Below are positions 2,267 through 42,053 of a stretch of DNA of 43,767 nucleotides, one piece after another. The notes under the pieces are model-generated. The model had not been told where the DNA came from. It made no database searches and saw only the letters and a program-made list of their open reading frames with translations. The stretch comes from a virus (Duplodnaviria; Caudoviricetes): positions 1 to 43,767 of the IMG/VR virus record IMGVR_UViG_3300024232_000005. The stretch is one strand, 5' to 3'. Both the position numbers and the translations under genes were made by a program. Within the stretch, counting starts at the first letter, position 1. Every line of letters starts with the position of its first letter.

Positions 2267-2805
2267 TTGGGATTTTGTTCGCTCAAGAGCAAGTGGCTCG
2301 TCTGCTTGGTCTGAAGTGTTTCGTTTCTAACGAGCACAAGGCATCCGCCATAACGGAAATGGAAAAGGCTATGCAGACGGCGCACAACATAGCGGCGGCG
2401 ATGGCCTTCGCGAACGATTGGCTCGCTGAACAGAATGAATGGCCTACGCCGGCGCAGATCCGCCAATTGCTTTTTGAGGCGCACCAAGGCCGACAGGAAT
2501 ACAGGCCGGATGCCGAGACGTACGCGCCAGATCCACTACATTGCAAGCGCTGCCAAAACTTCGGTGCCTACGGCGGTAAAATCGGCACAAAGTACGACGG
2601 GGAATGGAAATGGTGCGACTGTGAAGCGGCCATCGAAAAGCGGCGTGTAGAGCCAGACCTAGTGGTGCTAGCAAACGAAACGCGCAATCGGCTCATTGAG
2701 ATAATATCCAAGTCTCCAAAGATGATCGGTCGCAGTGGTCCGCGATCCAACGTCATCCGCACAATCGCGGCGATTTCCAATGAGGATTATCATGGCGAAT
2801 TCTGA
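2263..2805 (+). CDS. Putative helicase loader/inhibitor-like replication protein with C-terminal Zn domain
   Basis: WPTPAQIR motif; CKRC...WCDC; directly after initiator. Confidence 0.6.
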   Translation: MIGILFAQEQVARLLGLKCFVSNEHKASAITEMEKAMQTAHNIAAAMAFANDWLAEQNEWPTPAQIRQLLFEAHQGRQEYRPDAETYAPDPLHCKRCQNFGAYGGKIGTKYDGEWKWCDCEAAIEKRRVEPDLVVLANETRNRLIEIISKSPKMIGRSGPRSNVIRTIAAISNEDYHGEF

Positions 2806-2823
2806 TCGACAGAGGAAAACAGC

Positions 2824-3063
2824 ATGACCACACAAGTTCCGCAAAACCGACTATACGTGGAAACGAATGCGCTCTGCGAAGGAGCCAATGGAGATTGGAT
2901 ATTTGAGGCTTACGACGGAGATGAACAGAGTAGCGAAGAGTTCCTGGCGGCTGTAGTGCTGATGATCGCTCAGTCCGATGATCCAGAACGACGATTGATC
3001 AAGTTCATGCGCACGATGGCCGACACTTTTGAGAGGCAGCTTGCATTGAGGAAAACAGCATGA
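2824..3063 (+). CDS. Hypothetical protein
   Basis: GAGG RBS; ATGA overlap. Confidence 0.6.
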   Translation: MTTQVPQNRLYVETNALCEGANGDWIFEAYDGDEQSSEEFLAAVVLMIAQSDDPERRLIKFMRTMADTFERQLALRKTA

Positions 3064-3539
3064 CAGGCAAACGAGAGCATTTGGCAAGCTTGGTTGTCGC
3101 CCCGGATATCCTGCCAACGCGGCGGTTATCGCAGCGGTCCCTTGACGATCCTGCTCCGCGTCAAGAGTTTTGGTACAGAGCATCAGGGCAGACCTACGCC
3201 GCAATGCCCGACGAATGGGGTGAGTCTCGTGGTGTTGGTAGAACGGATGTCCATATCACGCAGTATCAAGTGTTGAAGCGGACCGCCAAGGGAGTTTGGC
3301 TGTACAATTTTGGAGACCGAAAATTTGTTCTGGCGTCCGCGCGTAAACAGTTCGCATCGCCCACGGAAGCAGCGGCTTGGGAAAGCCTGATCCACCGTAA
3401 AAAGCGGCAGATAACAATTCTCACAAACCAACTAGAAACTGCCAAACTGATTATGCATTTGGCGGAGGCGGCGGCAGGCGGGTCAAAGCAAAAGGAGGCA
3501 AGTGAATGCACATCTGGAAAATTGAGGACGATTTGGTGA
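3060..3539 (+). CDS. Hypothetical phage protein
   Basis: VLKRTAKGVWL...KQFASPTEAAAWESL pattern seen in phage accessory proteins. Confidence 0.65.
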   Translation: MTGKREHLASLVVAPDILPTRRLSQRSLDDPAPRQEFWYRASGQTYAAMPDEWGESRGVGRTDVHITQYQVLKRTAKGVWLYNFGDRKFVLASARKQFASPTEAAAWESLIHRKKRQITILTNQLETAKLIMHLAEAAAGGSKQKEASECTSGKLRTIW

Positions 3540-3742
3540 TGCGCAAAGGACAAGTGATAGCAGAGATCTATCGTGAAGACGGGAAAGTGGGCTGGCGTGG
3601 TCTAGGAATGCATCGCGAGAACTTCAAGCAGGATGAGGGGATGATGGAGCGTATCCTAGAGGACGTTAAGTACTTTCATCGCTACAATCCGCCGAAGTTG
3701 ACGCTGACCTTTGCCTCCGGTAGGAAGGCGGTTTATCGATGA
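3506..3742 (+). CDS. Hypothetical protein
   Basis: AGGAGG RBS; coupled to next gene. Confidence 0.65.
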   Translation: MHIWKIEDDLVMRKGQVIAEIYREDGKVGWRGLGMHRENFKQDEGMMERILEDVKYFHRYNPPKLTLTFASGRKAVYR

Positions 3743-3930
3743 TCAGCGAAGCGAAACTGCGGGAGATTGAAGCGCGAGAAGTTCAGGCGATGAGCAGCGA
3801 TTCCGACATTCCTGCGCTCACCAAGGCGCTCAGGGAAGCGGCGGAGATCATCGGAAATATGAGAGATCTGCATATCTGGTATCCGTTAGCAGATGAGTGG
3901 CTTCGCGAATGGCGTGGCGAGACCGAGTAG
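3739..3930 (+). CDS. Hypothetical protein
   Basis: ATGA overlap with upstream gene. Confidence 0.6.
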   Translation: MISEAKLREIEAREVQAMSSDSDIPALTKALREAAEIIGNMRDLHIWYPLADEWLREWRGETE

Positions 3931-3938
3931 AGGGAAGC

Positions 3939-4316
3939 ATGAGCGGCTACATCGTAATTTCAGGACACATCGTTGGCAACCAAGAGCGTGGCTTTGTGAC
4001 CGTTTGGGAATCCGATCTCGAGGAGAAGCACACTGTTTCCGCTGCGATTTCTCACGGATTCCGAACGGTTGGTTCGGATGACTTCCGCATTGGTTTGGTG
4101 AAGTTTGGAGCACTGCGCCAGTTGCAATTCATGGAGGAAGCGCCGCGCTACTTCGATGAACTTGAATACACGGCTGAGCAATTGGGGCTGCGTTGCATTC
4201 GCAGTTCGATTGACGATGGACCACCATTGAAGGGGGCCAGAAAACGAAGCCGTGCCATTAGCGGTAGGCATGGCGAGAGCGAGAAACAAGGGGAAGCACA
4301 TGAGCGCAAGACTTAA
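3939..4316 (+). CDS. Hypothetical protein
   Basis: AGGG RBS before ATG 3939. Confidence 0.6.
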   Translation: MSGYIVISGHIVGNQERGFVTVWESDLEEKHTVSAAISHGFRTVGSDDFRIGLVKFGALRQLQFMEEAPRYFDELEYTAEQLGLRCIRSSIDDGPPLKGARKRSRAISGRHGESEKQGEAHERKT

Positions 4317-4572
4317 CGAAATCTGTCTGGACAAAAGCGATTCAATCATCATCAGACCGTTTTCTAACTATGAGGGATCGCTTCATATCCGCCTGACTGC
4401 CAGCGGAAAACTAGAAGTAGCAGGACCCGTCAATTGGAACAAACGCACCTTCATTGTATGTCCAGAGGGTTGGGTTGAAACCGCTGAGTCAAAGAAGTTG
4501 GCACTCGAAACCGCCCGCGCCAAACTCGCCAATTCCACAGGACTACCACGGAAGAGAAAGCCTGAGGCATGA
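4300..4572 (+). CDS. Hypothetical protein
   Basis: AGGGG RBS; coupled to next gene. Confidence 0.6.
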   Translation: MSARLNEICLDKSDSIIIRPFSNYEGSLHIRLTASGKLEVAGPVNWNKRTFIVCPEGWVETAESKKLALETARAKLANSTGLPRKRKPEA

Positions 4573-4982
4573 ACGATATATCTGCTGAGACTCGCGAAGT
4601 GGAGAGAGAGTTCAATCTCGATGATCGGTTTCACGCCGTGCAGACCCTGGTTCACGCAATGGACTATATCCGCCTCAGTGATCATAAAATGCTGGACCGG
4701 GTTAACGCCAACGAAATCCTAGCGGACGGTATCAAGAACGCGATTGATGGTCGCGCAACCGGGTTTGAGCACCGCACAGTTCGACACACGTATCGGAATG
4801 CCCGCGACGGCGCGAAGCTTCCCGCAGCCAGAGATCGACGATGTGAACGCTGCGGGGCAGTGGATGCGCCGTACTTCACTCATTGCTACTATCACGCACC
4901 CCCACGGCTGGAAGCGCGCACGCTCCAATCGACGGCAACAGAACGCGCGGAAGGAAGCTCGAAAGCAAAGAAGGAGAAATGA
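4569..4982 (+). CDS. Hypothetical protein with CxxC
   Basis: ATGA overlaps at both ends. Confidence 0.6.
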   Translation: MNDISAETREVEREFNLDDRFHAVQTLVHAMDYIRLSDHKMLDRVNANEILADGIKNAIDGRATGFEHRTVRHTYRNARDGAKLPAARDRRCERCGAVDAPYFTHCYYHAPPRLEARTLQSTATERAEGSSKAKKEK

Positions 4983-5218
4983 TGGACTGGTATCCAATTG
5001 AAACAGCGCCTAAGAGCACACCCGTATTACTGTGGGCACGAGGATGGTCGATTGAACTTGGGATCTACTTCGGAAATCAGCGCGGAGAAGAAGGCTGGCA
5101 CCACTGGGAAGGAAGCCGCAAATTCTTCTCGGAACCAACCCACTGGATGCCACTTCCAGATCCTCCAAGCGCGAAAGAAGCAGCAGTAGATCCTCCGAAA
5201 GGGGCAGAATCAGAATGA
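4979..5218 (+). CDS. DUF551-like protein
   Basis: WYPIETAPK...PTHWMPLPDPP signature. Confidence 0.85.
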   Translation: MMDWYPIETAPKSTPVLLWARGWSIELGIYFGNQRGEEGWHHWEGSRKFFSEPTHWMPLPDPPSAKEAAVDPPKGAESE

Positions 5219-5385
5219 TGGCTAGACAAAAAGTGTTGTACGCGGTTTCGTTTCTATTGTCATGTATGGCCGCTGTTTTTGACGTGCGAGTGTTGGATCA
5301 TCCAATCGGATACATGTGCTGCTTCTTCAGCGGCTACCTATTGGCCTTCGCGCGAAAACCCAAAGGGGCAGAGGTAACAGAATGA
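5215..5385 (+). CDS. Small two-TM membrane protein (56 aa, not in ORF track)
   Basis: MMARQKVLYAVSFLLSCMAAVF...YMCCFFSGYLLAFARK; ATGA overlaps at both ends. Confidence 0.55.
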   Translation: MMARQKVLYAVSFLLSCMAAVFDVRVLDHPIGYMCCFFSGYLLAFARKPKGAEVTE

Positions 5386-6107
5386 GCGAACAGAGGTCGG
5401 CGGCGGAAGTGGTTCTGGAAGTATTCGAGGCGATTGAGTCAGAGTTCAGCATTGAACCGCCAATCCCCAAGGAGATAACAAACTTACTCCATTCCAGGTT
5501 TACGGCCCTTGTTGAATCGGAACGATCCCGAGCGCGTGCGGGTTTCACCTACCCGCATATGTGCCGAGACGGGCATCCTGAAATCGGCCACAGCGACAAT
5601 AGCAGCGAGATGTGCCCATTGTGCCGAGCGCGTGCCGCAGACTATCCGTTGGATGCATCGTGCATGGATGTGGCCGACATCCTTGTTGACGAATACGCGC
5701 CCAACTGGTGCCCAGACCTTGCCAAGCCAGAGGCTCGGGAAAACCGCAACGAACTGAAGCGGCGGATAGGCAACGTGCTCTCATTCCAACGCGAGCAACT
5801 CAAAAAAGAGGCGCGTGCAGATGTGGCGGAACGCGATAAACTGCTGGCGGAAGTTCGCCGACAAGCCGACCAACTTGGCGAGAGATACCGAATCGCGGCG
5901 GCGGGACCGGGCCGTGAGTTCACGGCTGCGCTTGTGTGTGGAATCGGAGACAAGGTATCGGAGGTTGTGGCGGAACTGGTGGAGGCGCTGAAGAGCGTCA
6001 TTGACGCGCCGACAAGTGGATCGATTGACGTGATCACAGCGAGAAACGCTACGTTTCGGCGGGCGCGTGCCGCACTTGCCAAGCACTCCGAAGTGGAAAA
6101 GGTATGA
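5382..6107 (+). CDS. Hypothetical mosaic accessory protein
   Basis: GAGG RBS; CRDGH...CPLC module. Confidence 0.65.
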   Translation: MSEQRSAAEVVLEVFEAIESEFSIEPPIPKEITNLLHSRFTALVESERSRARAGFTYPHMCRDGHPEIGHSDNSSEMCPLCRARAADYPLDASCMDVADILVDEYAPNWCPDLAKPEARENRNELKRRIGNVLSFQREQLKKEARADVAERDKLLAEVRRQADQLGERYRIAAAGPGREFTAALVCGIGDKVSEVVAELVEALKSVIDAPTSGSIDVITARNATFRRARAALAKHSEVEKV

Positions 6108-6313
6108 GCAACACCAGTAAAATGCCATGGCCACCGCCTGAAGGATGGCCGGATTGCATGATTTGCAAGGATGAAGGAGTCTGGGGTGGTGGGGTACAGC
6201 CATTTCACTGGTGCGGATGCATCAGGGGCCGCGTGAGGGCGGCTACAGAGCCATCGTATGTGTCGGATGCAAACGCTGAATGGCAACGACTGAGGGATTT
6301 GGAGATTCGATGA
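6104..6313 (+). CDS. Stand-alone Zn domain paralogous to C-terminal half of 2263..2805
   Basis: CxxCxxxGxxGG...WCxC...EPxxVxxANxxxxRL shared with the replication protein. Confidence 0.65.
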   Translation: MSNTSKMPWPPPEGWPDCMICKDEGVWGGGVQPFHWCGCIRGRVRAATEPSYVSDANAEWQRLRDLEIR

Positions 6314-7027: not shown

Positions 7028-7329
7028 CCCAAGGAATGCTATTCGAGCAGCAAGCACCAGCCAGGCGCACAGACCCGGAAACAGCGCACGAAGCAGCCGC
7101 CGAGAATCAGGACGTCAGGACATCCACAAGGCGAGAAGTGCTTATTTATCTACAATTTTGCCGCCAAACCGGTGCGACAGATTATGAGATTTGCGAGGCT
7201 TTAGGCATACTTAGGACGTCAGCCGGCAAGCGGCGCCACGAACTTGTAGCGCTCGGGCTTGTGGAAAACAGCGGGCAGCGGCGACAAACCGATACCGGCT
7301 CAACAGCGATCGTGTGGAGGGCTAAATGA
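7024..7329 (+). CDS. Winged-helix DNA-binding protein
   Basis: ARRTDPETAHEAA...GATDYEI...KRRHELVALGLV...AIVW pattern of phage wHTH proteins. Confidence 0.75.
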   Translation: MTQGMLFEQQAPARRTDPETAHEAAAENQDVRTSTRREVLIYLQFCRQTGATDYEICEALGILRTSAGKRRHELVALGLVENSGQRRQTDTGSTAIVWRAK

Positions 7330-7544
7330 AAGTGGACGAATTTTGTGATGAATTGGTGGTGGCCGCCTCAGACTTCATTGATGCTGCGCTGGACGATCAC
7401 GAGGGGCCTACCGTTTCCAAGGAATTCAGCCAATCGCGGGAGAAGCTGGTGTCATTGATAACTCAGTGGGTGCGGGGCGACGTAGCGCGAACGCTCAACA
7501 CCACGACTACAGACTGCGATGAGGGGAGCGCCAATCCAAAATGA
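7326..7544 (+). CDS. Hypothetical protein
   Basis: GGAGG RBS; coupled. Confidence 0.6.
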   Translation: MKVDEFCDELVVAASDFIDAALDDHEGPTVSKEFSQSREKLVSLITQWVRGDVARTLNTTTTDCDEGSANPK

Positions 7545-7831
7545 TATGGGAAAGAAAATGCGCAAGATGTGGGTTTGTGCGGAAGTTTAGCGGACCAGTG
7601 GCACTATTGCCTTGTCCTGGCTGCATAAAGCGATTCGATCCACCAACAGATGGTGAAGGGACAATGAAGCTCAGTGACGTAGTACGCGAATACCTTGAAA
7701 CTCGCGGCCCTGGCCAGCACCGTTTGATTGACGGATTCGCTTGGGTTTCAGAAAGGTGCGCAGAACTCGGGATTACGGCCACAGACGACGAAATCAAGCG
7801 CGAGTTTCGCGATGTCGCAGGCTACCCATGA
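7541..7831 (+). CDS. Hypothetical protein with Zn ribbon
   Basis: CARC...CPGC; may also have an internal start at MKLSD. Confidence 0.5.
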   Translation: MIWERKCARCGFVRKFSGPVALLPCPGCIKRFDPPTDGEGTMKLSDVVREYLETRGPGQHRLIDGFAWVSERCAELGITATDDEIKREFRDVAGYP

Positions 7832-7840
7832 CTATCACAC

Positions 7841-7869
7841 TTGCAGAATCAAAGCTTTAGGAGTACGAT
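7841..7869 (+). promoter_or_regulatory. Sigma70-like promoter upstream of packaging genes
   Basis: TTGCAG-N17-TACGAT. Confidence 0.55.
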
Positions 7870-7898
7870 TGATTCTCTAAAGTAGAAATTCCTTAGAT

Positions 7899-8357
7899 AT
7901 GGCGAAACGTGGACGGAAGCCTGGTACCCCCAAGACCGGCGGGCGCAAAGTCGGAAGCAAGAGCAAGCATGTCTTGGCACTGGAGCATCGCGATAACCCG
8001 CTAGTGCTGTTGTCGAGCAAACGAATTGAGCAAATCCTAACCAACACATTGCCTTGTAGTGTTTGCCGCGGAACCAAGGAAACGCCCTACGAGCTCCCAG
8101 CGGGAAGCCACGCAGCGGTGTGCAGATCCAGAATAGGCGCAGAATGCTCATGCCAGGGGATTGGGCAGCGGCCGTGTGCATCCTGCAAGGACGGATTCGA
8201 GCAGCTTTCGCCAGAGGTTATTGCAAAGGTGGCTATGGCGGTGCGCGAAGAGGCATACCCCAAGCTCAAGTCTATTGAGCACAAGGGAACTGTAAACGTT
8301 GATTTGATGGCCCAGAAGATCATCGCAGCCCGTAAAGCGCGAATGCTGCAGCAATGA
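7899..8357 (+). CDS. terS: Terminase small subunit with Cys-rich Zn-finger insert
   Basis: GRKPGTPKTGGRKVGS N-terminus, YPKLKSIEHKG C-terminus, position before terL. Confidence 0.7.
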   Translation: MAKRGRKPGTPKTGGRKVGSKSKHVLALEHRDNPLVLLSSKRIEQILTNTLPCSVCRGTKETPYELPAGSHAAVCRSRIGAECSCQGIGQRPCASCKDGFEQLSPEVIAKVAMAVREEAYPKLKSIEHKGTVNVDLMAQKIIAARKARMLQQ

Positions 8358-8452
8358 AAATCCCCCACCGATTCAAAAGATTGCTGCTCACGAGCATCAC
8401 CATTCTAGTGTTCCTTCTGGTGGCTTGGTTAGCAGGTAGGTATGTCCCGTGA
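8354..8452 (+). CDS. 32-aa single-TM peptide between terS and terL
   Basis: MKIPHRFKRLLLTSITILVFLLVAWLAGRYVP; ATGA and GTGA overlaps at both ends. Confidence 0.55.
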   Translation: MKIPHRFKRLLLTSITILVFLLVAWLAGRYVP

Positions 8453-9948
8453 CTGAAGCAGCGGAACAACTCGATTTGACGATCCAAGCGGGGTTGTATT
8501 GGGATAACCCGCTCGGATTCGTGTTGGATTGCTTTGAGTGGCCCGAAGGCGAGGGTCCTGATGAATGGCAGCGGCGGTTCCTAGAAGATTTTGGGAGTGC
8601 GATTAGATCGCGGTCTTTTGACCCCACTGTGCCCGAGCCGGTTGACCCGGTAAGAATGGCGGTCGCCAGTGGGCACGGAATCGGTAAATCCACGCTTATG
8701 TCGTTTGTTTTCTGGTTCATAATGTGCACCAGACCAAACGCTAAGGGCCGCGTCACGGCTAATACCTTCAGCCAGCTCGAGACGACAACATGGGCGGAGA
8801 TTCAGAAGTGGGGCAAGCGCTGCCGATTCAAGGATTGGTTCGAGGTTGGGGCCTCTAAGATCTATCACAAGGAAAACAAAGAGGGTTGGTTCGCTGTCCC
8901 GCTGACTTGCGCAGAGGAGAACAGCGAGGCGTTCGCTGGCCAGCATAATCGCGAGTCGACCAGCTTCTATTTGTTCGATGAATCGAGCTTGATACCCGAT
9001 ACGATATGGGAAGTTGCCGACAATGGACTTACCGACGGTGAGCCGATGTGGTTTGCCTTCGGGAACCCAACGCGCAATACGGGCAAGTTTTATGAGGCCT
9101 GTTTCGGTGATTGGCAGCATCGCTGGAATGCGCGATCAATCGACAGTCGAGACTGCAAGTTTCCGAATCACCAACTCCATGAAGAATGGATTGCAGATCA
9201 CGGGCTCGAATCGGATTTCGTTAAGACGAGGATTCGAGGATTGCCGCCGTCACAGGCTGAAGGGCAACTCATCAGCCGTGAGTTGGTGCAAGAGGCGCAG
9301 CATCGGCGTGTGGAAACACTGATGGATGAGCCATTGGTGGCCGGCGTAGACGTGCCTGACGGTGGGTCGGCATGGTTCGTGATTAGATTTCGCCGCGGGC
9401 TGGACGCTCGGCCTGGACCGCGCGTACCTTCGCCAATCAGAATTGCCGGTTCAAAGGTGGATCGGCCACAAATGATCGCTATCTGTTCGCAGGTGTTGAG
9501 CGAGCAGCATCCCGACAAGTTTGTGGATGCTATGTTCATCGATTCGGCCTTCGGTGCAGCCATTGCGGAGCGTCTTAAGTCTTTGAAATACGATAATGTT
9601 CACGAGATTAGCTTCGGTGGAAAGTCGCCAGATGAGCGGTTCGGGAATATGCGTGCGTTCATGTGGGGAAAGCAGATGAAAGATTGGCTCAGCAAGGGCG
9701 GAATCGATCCCGAGGATAAGAATTTGGTTAGGCAGTTGTCGGCGCCTGGGTTTCACCTGAAAGTTGGCGGCGATGGGGCGTTGATTGTCGAGAGCAAGGC
9801 TGACATGGCGAAGCGTGGTATCCCGAGTCCGGACGACGGGGACGCGTTGGCGCTTACTTTCGCGCGTGCAGTGGCCAAAAAGGAAAGAGCGCAGGTTGTG
9901 GAACATCCGCAAAGACACAGCCCAGACGCATGGATGCGTAGCATTTAG
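8449..9948 (+). CDS. terL: Terminase large subunit
   Basis: Walker A SGHGIGKS, Walker B FYLFDES, FGNPTR coupling motif, VAGVD and SPDDGDALALTF nuclease motifs. Confidence 0.95.
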   Translation: MTEAAEQLDLTIQAGLYWDNPLGFVLDCFEWPEGEGPDEWQRRFLEDFGSAIRSRSFDPTVPEPVDPVRMAVASGHGIGKSTLMSFVFWFIMCTRPNAKGRVTANTFSQLETTTWAEIQKWGKRCRFKDWFEVGASKIYHKENKEGWFAVPLTCAEENSEAFAGQHNRESTSFYLFDESSLIPDTIWEVADNGLTDGEPMWFAFGNPTRNTGKFYEACFGDWQHRWNARSIDSRDCKFPNHQLHEEWIADHGLESDFVKTRIRGLPPSQAEGQLISRELVQEAQHRRVETLMDEPLVAGVDVPDGGSAWFVIRFRRGLDARPGPRVPSPIRIAGSKVDRPQMIAICSQVLSEQHPDKFVDAMFIDSAFGAAIAERLKSLKYDNVHEISFGGKSPDERFGNMRAFMWGKQMKDWLSKGGIDPEDKNLVRQLSAPGFHLKVGGDGALIVESKADMAKRGIPSPDDGDALALTFARAVAKKERAQVVEHPQRHSPDAWMRSI

Positions 9949-9989: not shown

Positions 9990-10253
9990 ATGATGACAAG
10001 AAAGACGCTCCTTCGCGTACTGCTGGCGATTAGACTCTTTGAGTCTAGCCGAGCATCCGACGCATATTACGCACTTCCACGAAAATTCAAACGCGGCTAT
10101 CTGTCGCCGATACACGTTTGGATATTTCGTCAGAACCTGCGCACGTTGTCGGAAGTTCTGCGGCCCTACCTGCGGCAGTTCATGCAGTCGGACGGTCGTC
10201 AGAAGATCGGCGATAAGATCCATATTCGCAAACCAGCGAGGTATGTAGCCTGA
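9990..10253 (+). CDS. Small protein resembling coat protein N-terminal region
   Basis: KIGDKIHIRKPAR versus coat KIGDTVYVRKPAR; stop overlaps groES start. Confidence 0.65.
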   Translation: MMTRKTLLRVLLAIRLFESSRASDAYYALPRKFKRGYLSPIHVWIFRQNLRTLSEVLRPYLRQFMQSDGRQKIGDKIHIRKPARYVA

Positions 10254-10753
10254 TGGGTAAACAAGATTCAAAATTCGACCACTTGCGGCCGCGCATCGAT
10301 GTAACCGAGTTCACGCCCTACTATGAGGATCGCGTCATGGTGCGCCGCATTGCGCATCCGGTAACGGACGGCTCGCTGTACCTACCTGAGAAGCGAAACA
10401 CGATTGGCGAAGGCGACTACGACCTTGTTGAGCTGCAATTGGGCGAGGTTGTAGCGCTTGGGCCTGGTTCCTCGGGGATCTGGAAGGATGGGGAGATCCG
10501 AGGGCATGGAGAGCACGCGCAGCAGCAGCCAGGGTATCCAAAAGCTTTCAAATCCGGCGGGCGCCTGCCGTTTCAGGTGAAGATTGGCGACAAAGTGCTG
10601 TATCATCGAGTTCACACGAACGAAGTGGTCCACGAAGGCGAGACGTACACGCTGCTTTTCGAAGAACAGAACATCCTGGCGGTTGTGGAGCAATCACAAA
10701 GCGAAGTATTTCGCGAGGTCAACGAAATGATGGATGCATGGGCTAAAACATGA
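10253..10753 (+). CDS. groES: GroES/Cpn10-like co-chaperonin
   Basis: PYYEDRVMVRR, LYLP, GEVVALGPG, VKIGDKVLY, EQNILAVVE motifs. Confidence 0.9.
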   Translation: MGKQDSKFDHLRPRIDVTEFTPYYEDRVMVRRIAHPVTDGSLYLPEKRNTIGEGDYDLVELQLGEVVALGPGSSGIWKDGEIRGHGEHAQQQPGYPKAFKSGGRLPFQVKIGDKVLYHRVHTNEVVHEGETYTLLFEEQNILAVVEQSQSEVFREVNEMMDAWAKT

Positions 10754-11423: not shown

Positions 11424-13538
11424 ATGTCAATAGAACGAGACGAAAGCTTTTTCGATAAGGCGCAGCGGCGGTTCAAGGCCGCTGTCGACGCTTGGAAACC
11501 CATCTATGATGAGATGGACATCGATCTCAAGTTCGCCACCGGGGACCAATGGGACGAAGCGGTAAAAACCAATCGCGAAACACAGCAAGGCCGTCCGACA
11601 CTCACCTTTGACGTTCTCCACACCAATATTCAGGTAGTCGCCAACAAGATCCGCCAAGACAAGCCGGCCATCAAGATAAGTCCGGCGGGCGGAGGCGCCA
11701 AGCAGGAAACCGCCAAGGTCTATGCGGGCATCATTCGCCACTGGAATTACCTGTCACAAGGCGATATCGCCCGCGACACGGCTTCGAAGTATCAGCTCTC
11801 GGGCGGAATCGGGTTCTACCGCGTCGCCACGAAGTACGTCAACCCAGATCCATCGCCAGATGACGCCGATGCCTTTGATCAGGACGGAACGACCGAATGG
11901 ATTCGTGACCCGAAGTCGGTTTACTTCGATCCTGATGTGGAGCAGCCGCAGTTTAAGGATGCCGGTTACTGCTTCATTATCAAGTGGATGTCCTGGGAGA
12001 AATACAAGGACAAATATGGCGACCGAAGCGATGCGAGCTGGGAAACATGGGACCAATCGGCACCGCTTCTGCGACCGTGGGCCAATGAAAAGGAAATAGC
12101 AGTAGCAGAGTATTGGCATAAAGAGACCACTAAAACTGAGATCAATGTTAATGGGAAGAAACGCATCAAAACCACCACCGTTGTGAAGCAGGACTTCATG
12201 AACGGAATCGAGGTGCTTTCGTCGACGGAATGGCTGACGGACGACATCCCCATCATTCCGGTGCTCGGTGAGGAAACCATTGTAGAAGGTAAGTTGAAAA
12301 TTGCAAGTCTGATCCGCTACGTGCGTGACGCGGCGAAACTGCGAAACGGCTACAAGTCGGCGATTGCGGAAAACATCGGACTCACGAACCGAGTGCCGTA
12401 CACCGGGCCGCGCGGCATGTTCAAGGGGCCAGGCTGGCGCGACGCTCACCTGACAAACCCTGCGTATCTCGAATGGGATCCGGTTTACGATACAAACGGG
12501 CAGCTGATCCCAGCCAAGCCAGAGCGAAACCCCATTGAGCCGGCTGTTCAGGCGCTCACCGAATCGGCGGCGGTTGAATCTGACGACATCAAGTCTGGAA
12601 TGGGTATTTTCGATTCAAGCATTGGGGCGGCCAAGGCCGAATACAGCGGGGTTTCCGTTGAGCGGCGCACCCAGCAGGCTGATATCACGAATTTCCATTT
12701 CAGCGACAACTTGACCCGTGCAATGTGGGTTGAGGGGAACATCCTGCTCAAGCTCATCCCGAAACTGATCGACACGCCACGGGCGATGAAGATCATGGAT
12801 GAGGACGGTACGATTTCGGAAGTTGCGATCACAATGGCTCTGAATGACGGTGAGCCGCCGATGGTCGATGGAATCGATCCCAAGGATCATCACAGGGTCG
12901 ACGTGGGGCGATATTCCTGTACGGTGAGCACCGGTCCGACCTGGGACACGCAGCGTAAGGAAGAATATGAGACGTGGATGGAGTTTCTCGCGAAAGCTCC
13001 TGAACTGGCTCCTGCGTTTCTGCCGGTGGTTCTGAAGTGGTCGGATACGCCAGGCGCCGACAAACTGGCCGAAATCGCTGGCGCACTCGCTCCGCCAGCG
13101 GTTCAGGCGATTCTGAAGGGCGAACAGGCCCCGGATCCGCAAGCTCAGGCGCAATTGGCGGCGGCATCTCAGCAGATGCAGGAACTTCAGGCTGAGAATA
13201 TGAAGCTTAAGTTCGATGCGGCGGCTAAAACGCAAGAACTGACGATGAAGCATTCGACTCAGATTGAAAGCAACGTCGTCGATCTGCTAAAGGCTGAAAT
13301 CTCTTCCAAAAACAAGGAAACAATCGAGATGGTTCAGCAGCAGTTCGCCGCCTTTGGGCAAATGCTTGAAATGTGGCAGGGGCACGCCGAAATGGCTCAA
13401 CAGCACGAGCACGACATGGCGAAAGGCCAACAGCAAATCGACGCTGCGCAGCAGGCGCAAGCCTCAGATCAGGTACACTCGACTATGCAACAGCAGGCAG
13501 CCGCGGAACAACAGCAATCAGAAGGAGCAGGACAATGA
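11424..13538 (+). CDS. P22-like portal protein
   Basis: GDQWD...RPTLT, IPIIPVLGEE, VGRYSCTVSTGP motifs; Q-rich C-terminal barrel; synteny. Confidence 0.93.
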   Translation: MSIERDESFFDKAQRRFKAAVDAWKPIYDEMDIDLKFATGDQWDEAVKTNRETQQGRPTLTFDVLHTNIQVVANKIRQDKPAIKISPAGGGAKQETAKVYAGIIRHWNYLSQGDIARDTASKYQLSGGIGFYRVATKYVNPDPSPDDADAFDQDGTTEWIRDPKSVYFDPDVEQPQFKDAGYCFIIKWMSWEKYKDKYGDRSDASWETWDQSAPLLRPWANEKEIAVAEYWHKETTKTEINVNGKKRIKTTTVVKQDFMNGIEVLSSTEWLTDDIPIIPVLGEETIVEGKLKIASLIRYVRDAAKLRNGYKSAIAENIGLTNRVPYTGPRGMFKGPGWRDAHLTNPAYLEWDPVYDTNGQLIPAKPERNPIEPAVQALTESAAVESDDIKSGMGIFDSSIGAAKAEYSGVSVERRTQQADITNFHFSDNLTRAMWVEGNILLKLIPKLIDTPRAMKIMDEDGTISEVAITMALNDGEPPMVDGIDPKDHHRVDVGRYSCTVSTGPTWDTQRKEEYETWMEFLAKAPELAPAFLPVVLKWSDTPGADKLAEIAGALAPPAVQAILKGEQAPDPQAQAQLAAASQQMQELQAENMKLKFDAAAKTQELTMKHSTQIESNVVDLLKAEISSKNKETIEMVQQQFAAFGQMLEMWQGHAEMAQQHEHDMAKGQQQIDAAQQAQASDQVHSTMQQQAAAEQQQSEGAGQ

Positions 13539-18047: not shown

Positions 18048-18764
18048 GTGGCGAGCTTCAATCTAACGCAGGTTGCCAATAAAGCGGCGCAGAAGTTGAT
18101 GGTTATCGACTCCAGCGGATCTTTGTCCACTCAACAGCTCAATGATGCGAAGGACATCGCGAACAACCTGCTAGAAAATTGGTCGGTGCAGCGGATCTAT
18201 GCGATCTCTGCACCAATCTCCGTCTTTAATCTGGTTTCAGGCCAGCAAAAATATTCAATCGGAACCGGGCTGAACTTCAATATCGCCCGTCCAGCAGCGA
18301 TTGAAGCAGCCAGCTTTCAGTTGAGCTTCGGAGGAGGCTCTCAGTCGTCCGAATTGAAGGTTTTGACCGCGGCGGAGTGGTCCTCGCTTCCGGATCGCAA
18401 CAGTTCGAGCACGTTGCCAAAGTTTCTCTATTACGATCGTGGATTCCCCACCGGATTCGTGTATCTGTCGCCCGTTCCGTTGGGTGGAACGCTTGAAGTA
18501 ACCAGTTGGGGCGCTCTCACGCAGTTCGCCGATCTGACTACGCCGATTACTCTCCAACCCGGCTATGCTCGGCTGCTTATCGCTGGGCTCGCTATCGAAA
18601 TGGCGCCGGATTACGAGGCTACGCCTGGCGCGGCGCTCGCCCAGGATTTTGCCGATGCCGCGGCGAACATTCGGCAACTCAATGCCGAGCTCATGGGGCC
18701 AGAGCCTCCAATTGGTCTGGTGGCGCCGAACCCCAATCAACCCGTTGCCGCCGGTGGAGGTTAG
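18048..18764 (+). CDS. Head-tail adaptor (P22 gp4-like), copy 1
   Basis: NNLLENWS, RPAAIEAA, PKFLYYDR, PGYARLLIAGLAIEMAPDY. Confidence 0.75.
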   Translation: MASFNLTQVANKAAQKLMVIDSSGSLSTQQLNDAKDIANNLLENWSVQRIYAISAPISVFNLVSGQQKYSIGTGLNFNIARPAAIEAASFQLSFGGGSQSSELKVLTAAEWSSLPDRNSSSTLPKFLYYDRGFPTGFVYLSPVPLGGTLEVTSWGALTQFADLTTPITLQPGYARLLIAGLAIEMAPDYEATPGAALAQDFADAAANIRQLNAELMGPEPPIGLVAPNPNQPVAAGGG

Positions 18765-18767
18765 CTT

Positions 18768-19598
18768 GTGTCGCGAACCTATACCGGCACTCAAATCATC
18801 TACCGCGCGGCGCGGGCGCTCGGAAACCTGCGCTCAGGCCAACCTGTGCCGACAGAGCAACTCCCTGACTTCATGGATTCCCTCAATGATATGGTGGATG
18901 GCTGGCAAGTCGATCAACGCAAGATTTTTTGCGTTGCGGCCAATCTCTACCAGCTCACGGCAGGTCAGCAGTTCTATCTGATCGGGCCCAACGCGCCTGC
19001 GTCGACAGTCGCAAACGGCAATACCTACATTGGAATTCAGGCGCCGCGTCCGAACGCGATTGAAGAAGCCAACATTCTAATTCAGAGCACGAATCCGGTG
19101 GTGCGCTATCAGATGGCGATTGTGAATGCGGAGCAGTGGAGCACCATCGCTGTGCAGACGCTGCCTTTCGCAATCCCAATGGTGCTTTGGAACGATAACA
19201 ATTTCCCGTCGACTGGGGCGACGGCAGGCTGCGCGGCGCTTAGCCTGTGGCCCGGCCCGCTTGGAAGCTATCCGCTTGAGCTGTTCACGTGGCAACAGAT
19301 TCAACAATTCGCCGATGCGACGACTTCTTATGCTTTCCCGCCGGGATACGCCGAAGCTATCATCTTTTCACTCGCTGAACATGCTGCATCGCTGTTCCGA
19401 TTCTACTTTAAAGTGCCCAATGCAGTGTTTGCCGAGCAATTCGAGCTGGTTAAGCAGCAAGCACGGCGCGCGCGGCAAAACATTGACGAATCGAACGCAC
19501 GTCAGGAGTTCATGGCGATCGATCCAGCATTTCAGTCTGTCGACTCGCGCTATGGGGCCTGGTCTTATTTGACCGGGGGATGGGGGCGTACACTCTGA
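18768..19598 (+). CDS. Head-tail adaptor (P22 gp4-like), copy 2
   Basis: LNDMVDGWQ, RPNAIEEA, FPPGYAEAIIFSLA. Confidence 0.75.
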   Translation: MSRTYTGTQIIYRAARALGNLRSGQPVPTEQLPDFMDSLNDMVDGWQVDQRKIFCVAANLYQLTAGQQFYLIGPNAPASTVANGNTYIGIQAPRPNAIEEANILIQSTNPVVRYQMAIVNAEQWSTIAVQTLPFAIPMVLWNDNNFPSTGATAGCAALSLWPGPLGSYPLELFTWQQIQQFADATTSYAFPPGYAEAIIFSLAEHAASLFRFYFKVPNAVFAEQFELVKQQARRARQNIDESNARQEFMAIDPAFQSVDSRYGAWSYLTGGWGRTL

Positions 19599-37575: not shown

Positions 37576-37875
37576 ATGATGAACAGACGCGGATTCTTCG
37601 GATTGCTTGGCGGGGCTGTCGCGGCGCTGACGCTGGACCCCGAAAAGGCGCTATGGGTTCCGGGGAAGAAGCTGATTTCGATTCCCCTTCATGGCGGAGG
37701 CAGACTACAGCAGTTCTACGTCACTGGAATCGAATATTCTTTGGGTGACTATGCTGACATTTACCTGCGGCCAGGGGATGACGGAAACATACTATCTATA
37801 AGATCAGGTTGGGCAACAGAGATCCTGAAGCCAGGTGATAGGTTCACGATCGCCGGAATGTATCAAAAAAACTGA
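37576..37875 (+). CDS. Twin-arginine-leader protein with coat insertion-domain-like segment
   Basis: NRRGFF leader; LQQFYVT and GW...LKPGDRFTIAGMY similar to coat. Confidence 0.65.
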   Translation: MMNRRGFFGLLGGAVAALTLDPEKALWVPGKKLISIPLHGGGRLQQFYVTGIEYSLGDYADIYLRPGDDGNILSIRSGWATEILKPGDRFTIAGMYQKN

Positions 37876-38943: not shown

Positions 38944-39072
38944 ATGCCAGACGAAAAAGAGAAACACCCACACCCCGACCCGCATCCTCCTGTTAGCTAT
39001 GATGAGACTGATCCACCCCCACCGCCTCCTCCAACTCAAGGCGGAGGACCGGGCGGCGATGGCAAAGGCTGA
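38944..39072 (+). CDS. 42-aa Pro/Gly-rich peptide (not in ORF track)
   Basis: MPDEKEKHPHPDPHPPVSYDETDPPPPPPPTQGGGPGGDGKG; TG-A-TAAACT 6 nt upstream of ATG. Confidence 0.55.
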   Translation: MPDEKEKHPHPDPHPPVSYDETDPPPPPPPTQGGGPGGDGKG

Positions 39073-39082
39073 ACAGTCGGCG

Positions 39083-39352
39083 ATGCAGACGCCCGATCAT
39101 CAGGATTGTCAGAACACGTCGCAGGTAGTCGCCGGCTTGTCGGCTATCTCTGGAGGGCTTGTTACAGCTTTCCTGACCTGGTTGAGGATGAAGTTTAGGC
39201 CGCCGGCCGATCCGCGGATACAGCGCATGGAGCGGGAGCTAGAGCAGTTGCGTACGGAGCGCAGCGAGGCTCATATTTTGGAAAACTTCAAGCGCTGGTT
39301 TCGTGATGAGGGACTGAAGGAGCTGCGTGCTGAGTTCGGGAGACGGCGGTAA
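39083..39352 (+). CDS. Single-TM coiled-coil protein
   Basis: VVAGLSAISGGLVTAFLTWL then charged helix. Confidence 0.55.
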   Translation: MQTPDHQDCQNTSQVVAGLSAISGGLVTAFLTWLRMKFRPPADPRIQRMERELEQLRTERSEAHILENFKRWFRDEGLKELRAEFGRRR

Positions 39353-39767
39353 ACTCCACCTGCGTAGAGGCCATGTAGTTGTAGATCATCTGGGCTTCTC
39401 GATTTCTGCGCACTAGCAGCACTTTGGCGTCTTCAAGTTCTTGAGCTTGCGAAACCGATAAAGTTGCACCAGGCAGACGCCTATTGTAGTGCGGATCATT
39501 TGAGATCGCAGCAGCTATAAGTTCGGGCAGTCTATTGATTGTTAGAGTTGGACGATGCCTAATCAGCCTCTCTGCCTTAACCTGTCCGTCCCATTGATCT
39601 TCCCCTTCATAAAATCTCAAGGCTTCTGCGCGTTCCTTATCCGAGATCGGGTTGCGATCACTGTCGATGATCGATCTAACGGTTACGAAAGATCCAACCT
39701 GATCACCCATCCATTGAATCGGCTGTTCTAGCGATGGTATTTGTATTTGCTCCTGTGGTATTTCCAT
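39288..39767 (-). CDS. Miniature, internally deleted portal-like protein
   Basis: LRFYEGEDQWD..VK..R...RPTLTINRL and LVRRNREAQMIYNYMAS match two separate portal segments; AAGGAG RBS. Confidence 0.75.
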   Translation of the reverse strand: MEIPQEQIQIPSLEQPIQWMGDQVGSFVTVRSIIDSDRNPISDKERAEALRFYEGEDQWDGQVKAERLIRHRPTLTINRLPELIAAAISNDPHYNRRLPGATLSVSQAQELEDAKVLLVRRNREAQMIYNYMASTQVEFTAVSRTQHAAPSVPHHETSA

Positions 39768-40353
39768 GTTCTCTCCTTGTCCTTTTTGTTGCGAAGATCA
39801 TAGCCGCTAGCGCCACGATCTGCAGCGATTCCGTTACCAGCGTATTCGTCCACCACTCCGCGCCCGCTTCCCGGCGGCTGCTGACAATCGCTGCCAGCAG
39901 GTAGCCAGCCAAGCATCCGTGAATCCAGACGGCCCCATGTTCGTATCCTTCCCACCAAGTCAGAATCACCATCAATATAGAAACGAATAGCGCCACAAAG
40001 CCCCAGAGCTGCACGAACGCCCGGTAAGGCTCACCGGCGGCGCCGAACACCAGCGAGATGCCGGCAACCAGGCAGCCGATAGCCAGCGAGTAAACTGGTA
40101 CGCTCCCCTGGTAGTTGGTGGAGCGGAAGGTTCGGGCCATGGTTTCTACGACCGCCAGGAGCATCAGCAAGGCCGCGACTTCGGTTGCAATTGATGTGGT
40201 ACGCCACATAGAAGCCTCATAGAAGATGCAGCGAGCGGCTGTTGATGCGATCAGCAGGGAGAGCGTAGGGCGCACGCGGCCGAGGCTGAAGAGCAGCCAC
40301 AGGCAGAGAATCAGCATCACGGCGGGGAGGATGCGGAGCGTCAGGAGCGGCAT
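39703..40353 (-). CDS. Polytopic membrane protein (about 7 TM)
   Basis: About seven hydrophobic segments; GGAG RBS. Confidence 0.7.
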   Translation of the reverse strand: MPLLTLRILPAVMLILCLWLLFSLGRVRPTLSLLIASTAARCIFYEASMWRTTSIATEVAALLMLLAVVETMARTFRSTNYQGSVPVYSLAIGCLVAGISLVFGAAGEPYRAFVQLWGFVALFVSILMVILTWWEGYEHGAVWIHGCLAGYLLAAIVSSRREAGAEWWTNTLVTESLQIVALAAMIFATKRTRREHGNTTGANTNTIARTADSMDG

Positions 40354-41213
40354 CGATTTTTTCTCCACTGGAGATCGCGCTCCTCTTCTTTCTCTGCTTC
40401 GAGCTTCGTGGCTGGATTCCCACCACAGCACATCGGAATACCGCAATTTCGATTGGAGAGGGTGTAAGTAAATCCCGACAAGTTGCAGCGGTACTCGCGC
40501 TCCTGATCGCTTTCCTCTTCGGGGCCGCTGGTGTAAGGCGCGGCCAAGTGTTCATAGCCCGAGCCGTACCCAGGAGGAGATGGATTCTGTCTATACGTAA
40601 CCGAGCCGTTTTCGTTGTGAATAGCAAAGCTGTCGGCCCATGCTGATTGCTCAACGTTGAACTTGCGAGCCAATTCCCACGGTGCAGGCATTGCCTGCAT
40701 GGCTCTTGCAAGCCCCGTGGGGTAGCTGCAATTGGGTTTGTGCCGCCCATTGGTCGGCTCTCCGCATTCTGCGCAACGCGCTTGCTGCATCAGGTTGGCC
40801 TGCCGCTCGATTGCGTCTGGGTCATTCTGCATAGCCTTCCATTGGCGTGCAAAATCAGCATTTGGGATATCGTTCACTCGGCTATACATTCGCGTGAAAT
40901 CACCGATTGCAAGGCGTTCGTCCGGGAACAGGTTCCCTATGGTATAGCGCACCCATCCATCACGGACTTCTAAAATTCGTGCATATGTGGGAGGTAGCTT
41001 ATCAGGAAAGGGGTCGCCTTCGCGTTTCTCCGCAAAAAAATACCATGATTCTCCAACTACAGGAACAGGCCACAGATCCACATGGATGGTATCCACTGGT
41101 ACTCCGTCGATATAGGGTTGTGAATCAACTTCGCCGCGACCAAACAACCAATCGATTAGCCATAGCAGGCCAGCGAAGCCGAAGATGATGATGCCGAACC
41201 AGAGTAGTGTCAT
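40341..41213 (-). CDS. Membrane-anchored hypothetical protein
   Basis: N-terminal TM; CAECG...HKPNC; GGAG RBS. Confidence 0.65.
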   Translation of the reverse strand: MTLLWFGIIIFGFAGLLWLIDWLFGRGEVDSQPYIDGVPVDTIHVDLWPVPVVGESWYFFAEKREGDPFPDKLPPTYARILEVRDGWVRYTIGNLFPDERLAIGDFTRMYSRVNDIPNADFARQWKAMQNDPDAIERQANLMQQARCAECGEPTNGRHKPNCSYPTGLARAMQAMPAPWELARKFNVEQSAWADSFAIHNENGSVTYRQNPSPPGYGSGYEHLAAPYTSGPEEESDQEREYRCNLSGFTYTLSNRNCGIPMCCGGNPATKLEAEKEEERDLQWRKNRCRS

Positions 41214-41476
41214 GGTTTCTCCATTTCGATTCCGATGTTCAAGCCGATACAAAAGGCCATATGCAGGATACTGCAAACCTTAGTCATAACAGCTATAGGA
41301 TCTGATCCTGAAGCATATTCTTTGGCGACCTCGACCATCAGGATTGTGGCGTGGTCTTTGATCATCTCGTAAAACTCAGGGTTTTTCATATGCTCGGCGC
41401 GGCAAGACAAAAGATTAGCGATGAGCATGTCATCATCGATCAGAACAGATTGAATTGCTTCATCGAAGGTTTTCAT
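41210..41476 (-). CDS. Hypothetical protein
   Basis: ATGA coupling at both ends. Confidence 0.65.
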   Translation of the reverse strand: MKTFDEAIQSVLIDDDMLIANLLSCRAEHMKNPEFYEMIKDHATILMVEVAKEYASGSDPIAVMTKVCSILHMAFCIGLNIGIEMEKP

Positions 41477-41622
41477 GCTGCCGCCTTGGGGCGCTTCACA
41501 GCCTCCTGTAATGCCTCCACGACGTACTGTTGAAGCGTTTGCCCGCGCTCCGCAGCCCGCACAGAAACGCGGATGTGCAGTTTCGGGTCACACTTAATAT
41601 TCAAACGAACGGGTTTCTCCAT
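41473..41622 (-). CDS. Ribbon-helix-helix (Arc/HicB-like) regulator
   Basis: VRLNIKCDPKLHIRVSVRAAERGQTLQQYVVEAL. Confidence 0.8.
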   Translation of the reverse strand: MEKPVRLNIKCDPKLHIRVSVRAAERGQTLQQYVVEALQEAVKRPKAAA

Positions 41623-41628
41623 GCACTG

Positions 41629-41708
41629 ATGATGCCACAGGTGACGCCGATGCGTCAACATAATTCTTCAAAATAGTGCTTGACGCAAATAACGCAATCG
41701 GCTATGAT
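41629..41708. promoter_or_regulatory. Divergent early promoters with TGACGC operator boxes
   Basis: Plus TTGACG(41680)-N17-TATGAT; minus TTGACG(41658)-N18-CATCAT; TGACGC/GCGTCA at 41642, 41652, 41681. Confidence 0.7.
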
Positions 41709-41714
41709 GAATTC

Positions 41715-42053
41715 ATGAGCAGCCAACTGATGGAATCGCTTTACACGCACTCGAAACAGCTTTGCCCAAACTGCAACAAGCCTTGCACGTTTACTGAGCA
41801 CAGCTCAACCAGCATCGAGACTCACGGATTGGATTGCGGGCCTTACGAATCCTTCCATGAAGAATGGCTGACGTGCAACGGTTGCGGCGTCAACACGGAT
41901 GCCGATGAGCTTGAGATGCATCAGGTGGAGGATGCTTGCGAGCGCTGCCTGAAGAATGAAGGAACGCATACAGTCGGCGATCGGCGGTTATGCGTTGACT
42001 GTGCGGACGATGCCGACATGCCGGAAGATATGAGCGAAGGATGGGAGGATTAG
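41715..42053 (+). CDS. Cys-rich Zn-binding hypothetical protein
   Basis: Four CxxC pairs; leaderless start. Confidence 0.7.
   Translation: MSSQLMESLYTHSKQLCPNCNKPCTFTEHSSTSIETHGLDCGPYESFHEEWLTCNGCGVNTDADELEMHQVEDACERCLKNEGTHTVGDRRLCVDCADDADMPEDMSEGWED

Follow-up and report, generated by a model that had tools for sequence, protein, structure and literature searches.

Introduction

Bacterial immune receptors detect conserved folds that are hard for phages to alter, and the portal is one of these. The reported ligands of Avs receptors include portal, portal adaptor and capsid, the portal being sensed by Avs4 and Avs11 (available text of 10.64898/2026.01.04.697583), and SpbK is activated by a portal as well (available text of PMC13728456). 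The closest described relatives of the protein reported here are the portals of P22-like phages (PF16510, phrog_156; P22 gp1, Sf6 gp3, Pa223, Pan3), which are about 700 residues long. In the portal of P22, the first stem helix spans residues 320-343, and the clip starts at residue 344 (PMC12005531, in the text available). Trp41 of this protein lies near the subunit interface, and rings of the W41A variant fall apart (PMC9320234, in the text available).

Small, patchy accessory genes also encode the anti-defense mimics of phages, such as the DarTG antitoxin mimic of ICP1, Nip, which acts against the portal-activated SpbK, the anti-Avs proteins ORF55 and ORF83, and the DNA mimics; as far as the accessible parts of their descriptions go, these copy DNA or antitoxins or block an effector, and none is a shrunken copy of a sensed virion protein. 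In satellites, the capsid-interference protein Ccm of SaPIbov5 is a near full-fold paralogue of the capsid protein that has turned non-structural. Lastly, a portal may act on the host: T7 Gp8 binds and inhibits RelA and SpoT, for which its N-terminal region and its stem matter and its clip does not, whereas the C-terminal region and the whole ring are also needed (accessible text of PMC13483052).

Here we analyze a 43,767-base stretch of DNA (the window), which is the whole of a virus record and is circular, its ends wrapping round in sequencing-run contigs. It encodes a protein of 159 residues, the mini-portal, which shares with P22-like portals two segments, their predicted mutual arrangement, and the invariant residues G, QW, R, RP, N, Q, N and E. 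Unlike those portals, however, it lacks most of the wing, the clip, the second stem helix, the crown and the barrel, adds a WxG motif, and is encoded by an accessory gene outside the head module, alongside an intact portal. Unlike Ccm-like satellite proteins, it is a collapsed portal core carried by autonomous phages with head genes of their own. Its retained parts resemble those that matter in T7 Gp8, but Gp8 is a working portal and not a separate gene. With the anti-defense mimics it may share a role in conflict. No such protein was described in the literature searched (subscription papers and supplementary tables were outside the scope and could hold an unnamed example), nor in the available text of PMC13386823 and 10.1101/2025.06.06.658234. 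We regard its architecture as new in kind, and its function as an inference that can be put to the test.

Results

A gene that joins two distant portal segments

The mini-portal gene (P0002) occupies positions 39288-39767 on the minus strand, and a Shine-Dalgarno-like AAGGAG (39773-39778) lies 5 bases upstream of its ATG. The initial annotation had described the product as two distant portal segments joined together, with the intervening residues and everything downstream missing. Both peptides on which this was based are present in the protein, and the analysis bears out the description. Residues 19-36 (39660-39713) comprise a WxG motif and a short helix that are specific to the family (W in 85% and G in 88% of 110 members); this region of the mini-portals has no match to the portal profile. 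Segment 1 (residues 44-94; 39486-39638) consists of a helix, an FYxGxQW loop, an arginine, an RPxLxxN motif and a further helix. Through the alignment of the phage's own portal with that of P22, it corresponds approximately to P22 residues 28-70, i.e., the N-terminal wing with W41. Segment 2 (residues 118-142; 39342-39416) is the first stem helix, with Q126, N130, S134 and E138 nearly invariant, and corresponds by the same route to P22 residues 318-344. Between the two, a linker of about 25 residues (residues 95-117; 39417-39485) stands in for approximately 220 portal residues; it varies across the family, and its second half is predicted to prolong the stem helix. Nothing of the portal is retained past this helix. 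The last 17 codons (39288-39340) overlap the end of a plus-strand gene (38999-39352).

The relationship of segment 1 to portals is evident by itself. Residues 37-87 match positions 9-58 of the 594 in the Pfam P22_portal model PF16510 (E 1.7e-10), at 40.5 bits and thus above the curated cut-off of 26.1 bits, and segment 1 aligns with the phage's own portal in BLASTP with 19 of 42 residues identical (E 2e-4). Segment 2, as a 36-residue piece, has no significant Pfam match, and a comparison with just the own portal does not reach significance either (BLASTP E 3.8); it was therefore tested on a profile of many portals. Against a profile of 14 full-length portals, gathered by the segment-1 motif only, segment 2 scored 14.6 bits at profile positions 311-337, and none of 2000 shuffles scored as high. 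Four mini-portal homologues matched the same place, with 0, 0, 1 and 0 of 2000 shuffles as high. When a profile of the 110-member family was aligned with one of 67 portals, segment 1 was recovered over 53 columns (98.8%, E 5.5e-17) and segment 2 over 37 columns (95.6%, E 1.2e-8). The alignment to the P22 portal family that had been proposed as a check is thus significant. The mini-portal covers only the portal-profile regions of about 30-78 and 306-340, without a full wing, both stem helices, clip or crown. Judged by its sequence, it is a homologue of PF16510 by membership, yet not a portal.

It had also been suggested that the two segments are closer to the family consensus than the phage's own portal is. 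For segment 1 this is not so, as the Pfam score is 35.3 bits versus 35.7 bits for the own portal. For segment 2 it is partly borne out: at the positions where most of 73 portals have Q, Y, N, Y, S and E, the mini-portal has these letters too, whereas the stem segment of the own portal has neither that Q nor the YNY; the set of 73 was gathered with motifs like those of the mini-portal and is biased for a comparison of this kind.

Genome setting

The head and tail genes of the window are P22-like and include a large terminase (8449-9948), portal, scaffold, P22-type coat, adaptor-like genes and head closure. The phage's own portal (11424-13538, plus strand; 704 residues, PF16510 E 3e-128) is intact and holds the portal position between terminase and scaffold, 26 kb away from the mini-portal gene. 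Nearly all genes of the window are on the plus strand; the exception is a set of five overlapping ORFs on the minus strand, from 41622 to 39288. This is the operon that the initial annotation had seen, with a ribbon-helix-helix (RHH) regulator as its head and the mini-portal as its last gene. The 49-residue RHH protein (41473-41622), recognized by a family match, is followed by ORFs of 88 residues (41210-41476) and 290 residues (40341-41213), neither of a known family, and by a 216-residue hydrophobic, probable membrane protein (39703-40353), which is the upstream neighbor of the mini-portal. Divergent sigma-70-like promoter matches are located within 41629-41708 (41658-41629 on the minus strand, 41680-41708 on the plus strand); three were found and 1.8 expected, so that their count is not above chance. 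The end of the minus-strand match is 7 bases from the RHH start codon, and this distance suggests that the transcript is leaderless. In a related phage, 409 other bases take the place of 41215-41700, and four sequencing runs share a loose end at 41717.

No integrase was found among the 54 window ORFs scanned with PHROGs. The runs listed as holding DNA of the window are soil or rhizosphere metagenomes, and none is RNA. A portal in the same 90% cluster as the own portal is labeled Pyrinomonadaceae. Just before the own portal lies a gene for a GroES-like co-chaperonin (10253-10753, plus strand), whose counterpart in another genome, L123 (9234-9806, minus strand), overlaps the mini-portal gene there. 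Two paralogous adaptor-like genes of phrog_12985 are found at 18048-19598 (plus strand), and three at 2722-6261 of locus L064. The window also has a second fragment gene, a 99-residue ORF (37576-37875, plus strand) that combines a twin-arginine-like leader with a short match to the coat profile (238-260; 8.8 bits, 0 of 500 shuffles as high) and matches the phage's own coat in BLASTP with an E of 0.001.

The mini-portal gene is an optional cassette

A segment of 450 bases (39341-39790), comprising the ribosome site and codons 1-142 of the mini-portal and set against the gene of the membrane protein, is absent from relatives of this phage. In run X7, one contig passes directly from 39340 to 39791 and lacks exactly these bases; in contigs of runs X4 and X5, 213 bases replace 658. 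Pieces of the filled allele, without any differences, are present in runs X3, X4 and X6. Altogether, empty-site alleles were found in three of the six other runs compared. In the relatives with an empty site, the membrane protein ends with residues like the last 17 of the mini-portal (E 0.01). The sequence clusters of portal, coat and scaffold include contigs of 43,865 or 43,013 bases, and that of the mini-portal has one member. Given the empty site in relatives, the mini-portal gene is a dispensable 450-base cassette, and insertion into this phage is a simpler reading than deletion in the relatives. The mini-portal is an accessory, variable phage gene.

Conservation and descent of the family

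A search of 1.84 billion cluster representatives returned 129 matches, 115 of them shorter than 350 residues. Both segments in the same collapsed layout are carried by 106 of these 115, each a separate 50%-identity cluster, by calls that used lenient thresholds of 5 and 0 bits on matches pre-selected by their likeness to the query. From the start of one segment to the start of the other there are 36-105 residues (median 61) in these proteins, versus about 280 in portals. We aligned 107 of the short matches with P0002, P0004 and P0010, leaving out P0018, P0058, P0075, P0106 and P0131, which are cut or single-segment, and P0122, P0138 and P0139, which are ordinary portal fragments. One of these fragments, P0139 (247 residues), matches the portal profile at 4-86 and 256-341 and has a less collapsed internal deletion; it is possibly an intermediate form.

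All 110 aligned members match PF16510 at an E of 0.01 or better, at a pairwise identity of about 30%. Thirteen positions are conserved in at least 90% of the members: E138, which is invariant, and F52, G55, Q58, W59, R67, R72, P73, L75, N78, Q126, N130 and S134. Among 73 full portals, the G, QW, R, RP, N, Q, N and E that the mini-portals share are likewise conserved to 92-100%; the features that were kept are therefore the least escapable ones of a portal. These portal-invariant residues are at 94-100% across the mini-portals, higher than the family-specific parts. The proteins end a median of 17 residues past E138, where the clip of a portal would start.

In a comparison of P0002 with a partial homologue in locus L007, 26, 11 and 49 of 71 codons differ at the first, second and third position, respectively, and 29 of 46 identical residues are encoded by a different codon. 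The excess of third-position over second-position differences indicates selection on the protein. With this and the 106 two-segment matches, the possibility raised earlier of a unique, unconserved remnant falls away.

The descent of the shared segments was examined on 68 columns. In a FastTree phylogeny, 106 of 108 mini-portals and none of 73 portals are on one side of a branch with a support of 0.98, and a quick IQ-TREE phylogeny requires 3 changes of the mini/portal label versus 57 for shuffled labels; these trees rest on few columns, and two mini-portals fall outside the mini side. The own portal ranks 46th of the 73 in identity to P0002 (35%; best portal 46%), and the own portal of the phage L123 ranks 40th in identity to the L123 mini-portal. 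The unrelated portals of L001, L067 and L070 have a stem motif much nearer to that of P0002 than the own portal's is. At the DNA level, blastn found no likeness between the mini-portal and own portal genes (best same-strand E 0.43). These sequence comparisons place the mini-portals in one lineage, apart from full portals, and the own portal is not the donor.

Other loci and the rarity of the gene

The gene was examined in five other loci. It immediately precedes the large terminase gene in L008 and is separated from that gene by one small ORF in L009, where only the last 40 codons are present. In L007 it follows small same-strand ORFs and the sequence is cut, and in L064 it is antisense between adaptor-like genes. 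In the complete 87.8-kb genome of L123, it lies on the same strand as the intact portal and 7 kb after it, in the late gene run of that portal, and overlaps the Cpn10-like gene. The position in a separate operon is thus not a trait of the family, since in three or four of these five loci the gene shares its strand with packaging or structural genes. In both complete genomes examined, a mini-portal occurs alongside an intact portal.

Mini-portals were found in 2 of 100 motif-matched viral loci, one of them on the same contig as L064. Another motif scan, of 14 loci, gave one mini-portal, 11 portals and two blanks, and a word-indexed search gave only three to four relatives, with one full portal among the longer proteins. 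Four candidates (L107, L121, L163 and L165) were rejected as full portals, with portal-profile scores of 154-622 bits. INPHARED phages gave no match, IMG/VR yielded no mini-portal when scanned with the protein by itself, with small alignments or with neighbors, and samples of 53 GTDB loci and of 401 genomes of the phylum of G001 contained no two-segment mini-portal. Taken together, the lack of an integrase in the window and of two-segment mini-portals in the prokaryote genomes searched favor a role on the phage side over one in prophage defense.

Predicted fold

An AlphaFold2 model based on 5 sequences had a pLDDT of 76, and one based on the 110 sequences, an alignment that contains no full portals, had a pLDDT of 93 and a pTM of 0.82. 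The predicted structure consists of four short helices and one long helix, residues 105-147. Exhaustive structural alignment against 48,161 chains ranked portals, or portal-sized chains of tail complexes, at positions 1-9 with the 110-sequence model; two of the top matches are such portal-sized chains and are probable portals. With the 5-sequence model, portals or probable portals filled ranks 1-11 of the 48,161 chains. The portal of Pa223 aligned with a Z of 6.0 (rmsd 3.8, 97 residues). On the P22 portal (3lj5; Z 5.2, rmsd 4.9, 109 residues), model residues 39-158 superpose on chain residues 25-359, from N-terminal wing to stem. Z values of 4.4-6.0 are modest and within the range of common helical arrangements, so the weight is on the ranking and on its agreement with the sequence alignments. 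Foldseek returned nothing at an E of 0.001 from the PDB and BFVD; PDB sequence searches with P0002 or a 4-member profile gave chance matches only; and the ESM Atlas had a poor model and no usable feature match. The structure prediction that had been called for thus yields a confident domain, in which the two segments are predicted to keep their portal-like mutual arrangement, a wing-stem core.

Leaders and fusions in other members

Among the 84 members with a leader of at least 40 residues, 16 match the N-terminal helices of an adaptor profile built from 60 adaptor-like ORFs, each scoring above all 200 shuffles. This adaptor-like family itself matches the head-tail adaptor Ad3 and SU10_adaptor models. 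For a second, C-terminal adaptor segment in these fused proteins, hhalign gave weak support (1.8%, E 0.027). A relationship of the WxG helix to the N-termini of adaptors was not supported (hhalign 2.9%). Tat-like leaders, defined by an ad hoc rule as an RRxF/L motif plus a hydrophobic stretch, occur in 23 of the 110 members versus none of 164 portals, adaptors and coats; the one leader tested on Pfam scored below the TAT_signal cut-off (E 0.36), and no TAT model is among the family matches listed for members. An added coat piece was clear in one case, P0132. P0002 itself carries no adaptor piece, coat piece or Tat-like leader. Among the 25 of 31 that were listed, NCBIfam assigned no family to more than one member.

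In L123, three adjacent small ORFs with RRxLF leaders are antisense within the late region (7175-8267, plus strand), and two of the three share a motif with the window ORF at 37576-37875. Two Tat-leader ORFs of L123 considered as coat-like failed the shuffle test, with 181 and 239 of 500 shuffles as high.

Discussion

The reading that we tentatively prefer, while rating it slightly below an even chance, is that the mini-portal is a non-assembling decoy for a host protein that recognizes portals. It would bind a portal sensor similar in role to Avs4, Avs11 or SpbK and, without triggering it, would blunt the response of this sensor to the real portal. Adaptor, coat and Tat-like additions in other members would widen or relocate the decoy. 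With the clip, the second stem helix, the crown and the scaffold-contact residues missing, the protein cannot be a working portal and would be unable to build a DNA channel. We favor the decoy because the part that was kept is the most conserved one, because the gene behaves like a conflict gene, and because portal, adaptor and capsid are sensed by Avs receptors and the portal by SpbK. The core wing-stem arrangement of the portal is predicted to be present in it. In addition, a place in the late run beside the own portal, as in L123, or abutting the terminase gene, as in L008, suits something harmless to the assembly of the phage's own head. As to the partner, the initial annotation had listed Avs2, which senses the terminase, among the proteins to try in a pull-down. 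For the portal, it is Avs4 and Avs11 that are named as sensors (10.64898/2026.01.04.697583, in the text available). A decoy for the scaffold was rejected, the scaffold contact residues being outside the kept segments.

Several points count against a decoy. Avs4 also grips the portal clip, which the mini-portal lacks; a literature search on this contact found nothing, and portal epitopes of Avs sensors were not found in the accessible text of the literature searched. The residues conserved in both mini-portals and portals may only hold the fold together, and a faithful mimic of the portal risks triggering the sensor. Tat-like leaders point to the membrane or to export, which is awkward for a cytoplasmic sensor. 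Moreover, with W41 near the subunit interface and W41A rings falling apart, the kept surface could equally bind another portal subunit.

A wider form of the decoy reading, which we consider possible but doubtful, is that P22-like soil phages possess a modular kit of self-mimics. These would be collapsed cores of the phages' own sensed virion proteins (portal, head-tail adaptor, coat pieces), chained together and often provided with a Tat-like leader. They would soak up the pattern-recognition receptors of bacteria and either tether these or take them elsewhere, at a distance from the virion under assembly. If true, this kit would be a new class of anti-defense, in which the decoy is of the protein pattern itself, and the self-mimics would show how little of a portal is enough to form the epitope sensed by bacteria.

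The strongest rival, although an unlikely one even with its variants taken together, is that the mini-portal modulates assembly. Through the wing loop and the stem helix it would bind portal monomers, or coat at the portal vertex, and cap rings, so as to poison the heads of co-infecting P22-like phages or to serve as a dispensable chaperone for the own portal. The kept W41 loop is located where subunits meet, the loop of residues 41-59 is a candidate for binding coat, and there is cross-talk with the stem helices (accessible text of PMC9320234). The late-region placement in L123, L008 and L009 and the adaptor pieces fused in 16 members, adaptors being natural partners of portals, agree with such a role, and the middling ranks of the own portals in identity to P0002 and to the L123 mini-portal fit a weapon against other phages. 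However, a general poison of rings would harm its own phage where it is co-expressed with the portal, as in L123, and a needed chaperone should be neither missing from close relatives nor so rare. The residues of the P22 portal that contact the scaffold (179, 187, 191, 266, 292, 474 and 495-504; PMC12005531, in the text available) are outside the kept segments. Exclusion by a resident prophage lacks support here, since no integrase was found. Even if this rival were correct, the mini-portal would offer a natural minimal portal domain with which the nucleation of rings could be dissected.

Rather less probable than a role in assembly is that the portal core serves only as a scaffold that is small and stable, or is carried along as a mobile shard of a gene, and that its activity is unrelated to its portal likeness, e.g., that of a membrane-tethered factor. 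The family-specific WxG motif, the varied leaders and the cassette-like mobility would all be expected from such an origin. It does not account for portal-invariant residues that are kept more strictly than the family-specific parts in members only about 30% identical, nor for the repeated fusion to a second virion piece.

It is less probable again that the mini-portal is a distilled moonlighting module, which retains a host-directed side function of portals such as the inhibition of RelA and SpoT, and delivers it early and in excess. The parts needed in the T7 portal would be consistent with this, as would the operon of the window, separate from the late genes, and the net charge, which is negative in most members (median -3; P0002 -5). 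Nevertheless, this charge varies from -11 to +10, the requirement of the T7 portal for its C-terminal region and an intact ring is at odds with the truncation, P22 does not appear in the main text of PMC13483052, and the adaptor and coat fusions are left unexplained. Finally, an origin by decay of a portal gene or by a recent deletion within one, as the short length, patchy occurrence and annotation only as a partial PF16510 match might suggest, is hardly credible, and a pseudogene that is unique, drifting and of local portal origin was rejected, in view of the junction common to 106 clusters, the single lineage, the codon pattern relative to L007 and the lack of DNA likeness to the own portal.

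As a natural family that retains just the conserved core of the portal, travels as a small cassette and is fused to other sensed virion pieces, the mini-portals make it testable whether phages produce decoys of their own protein patterns, and which surface of the portal is sensed or drives ring assembly. It also means that short PF16510 matches in metagenomes are not all broken portals.

Other unusual ORFs were seen in the loci surveyed. In the Rhodomicrobium-like genomes L020 (9947-10237), L035 (8080-8337) and L043 (7944-8153), short ORFs of 69-96 residues with the portal N-terminus are found, and a longer portal ORF lies approximately 2 kb downstream of each. In L086, L133 and L147, the portal ORFs have 1075-1128 residues, about 350 above the usual length. 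The large terminase gene of L008 (723-3947) contains an intein, with a separate HNH-like ORF inside it in another frame (1555-2403).
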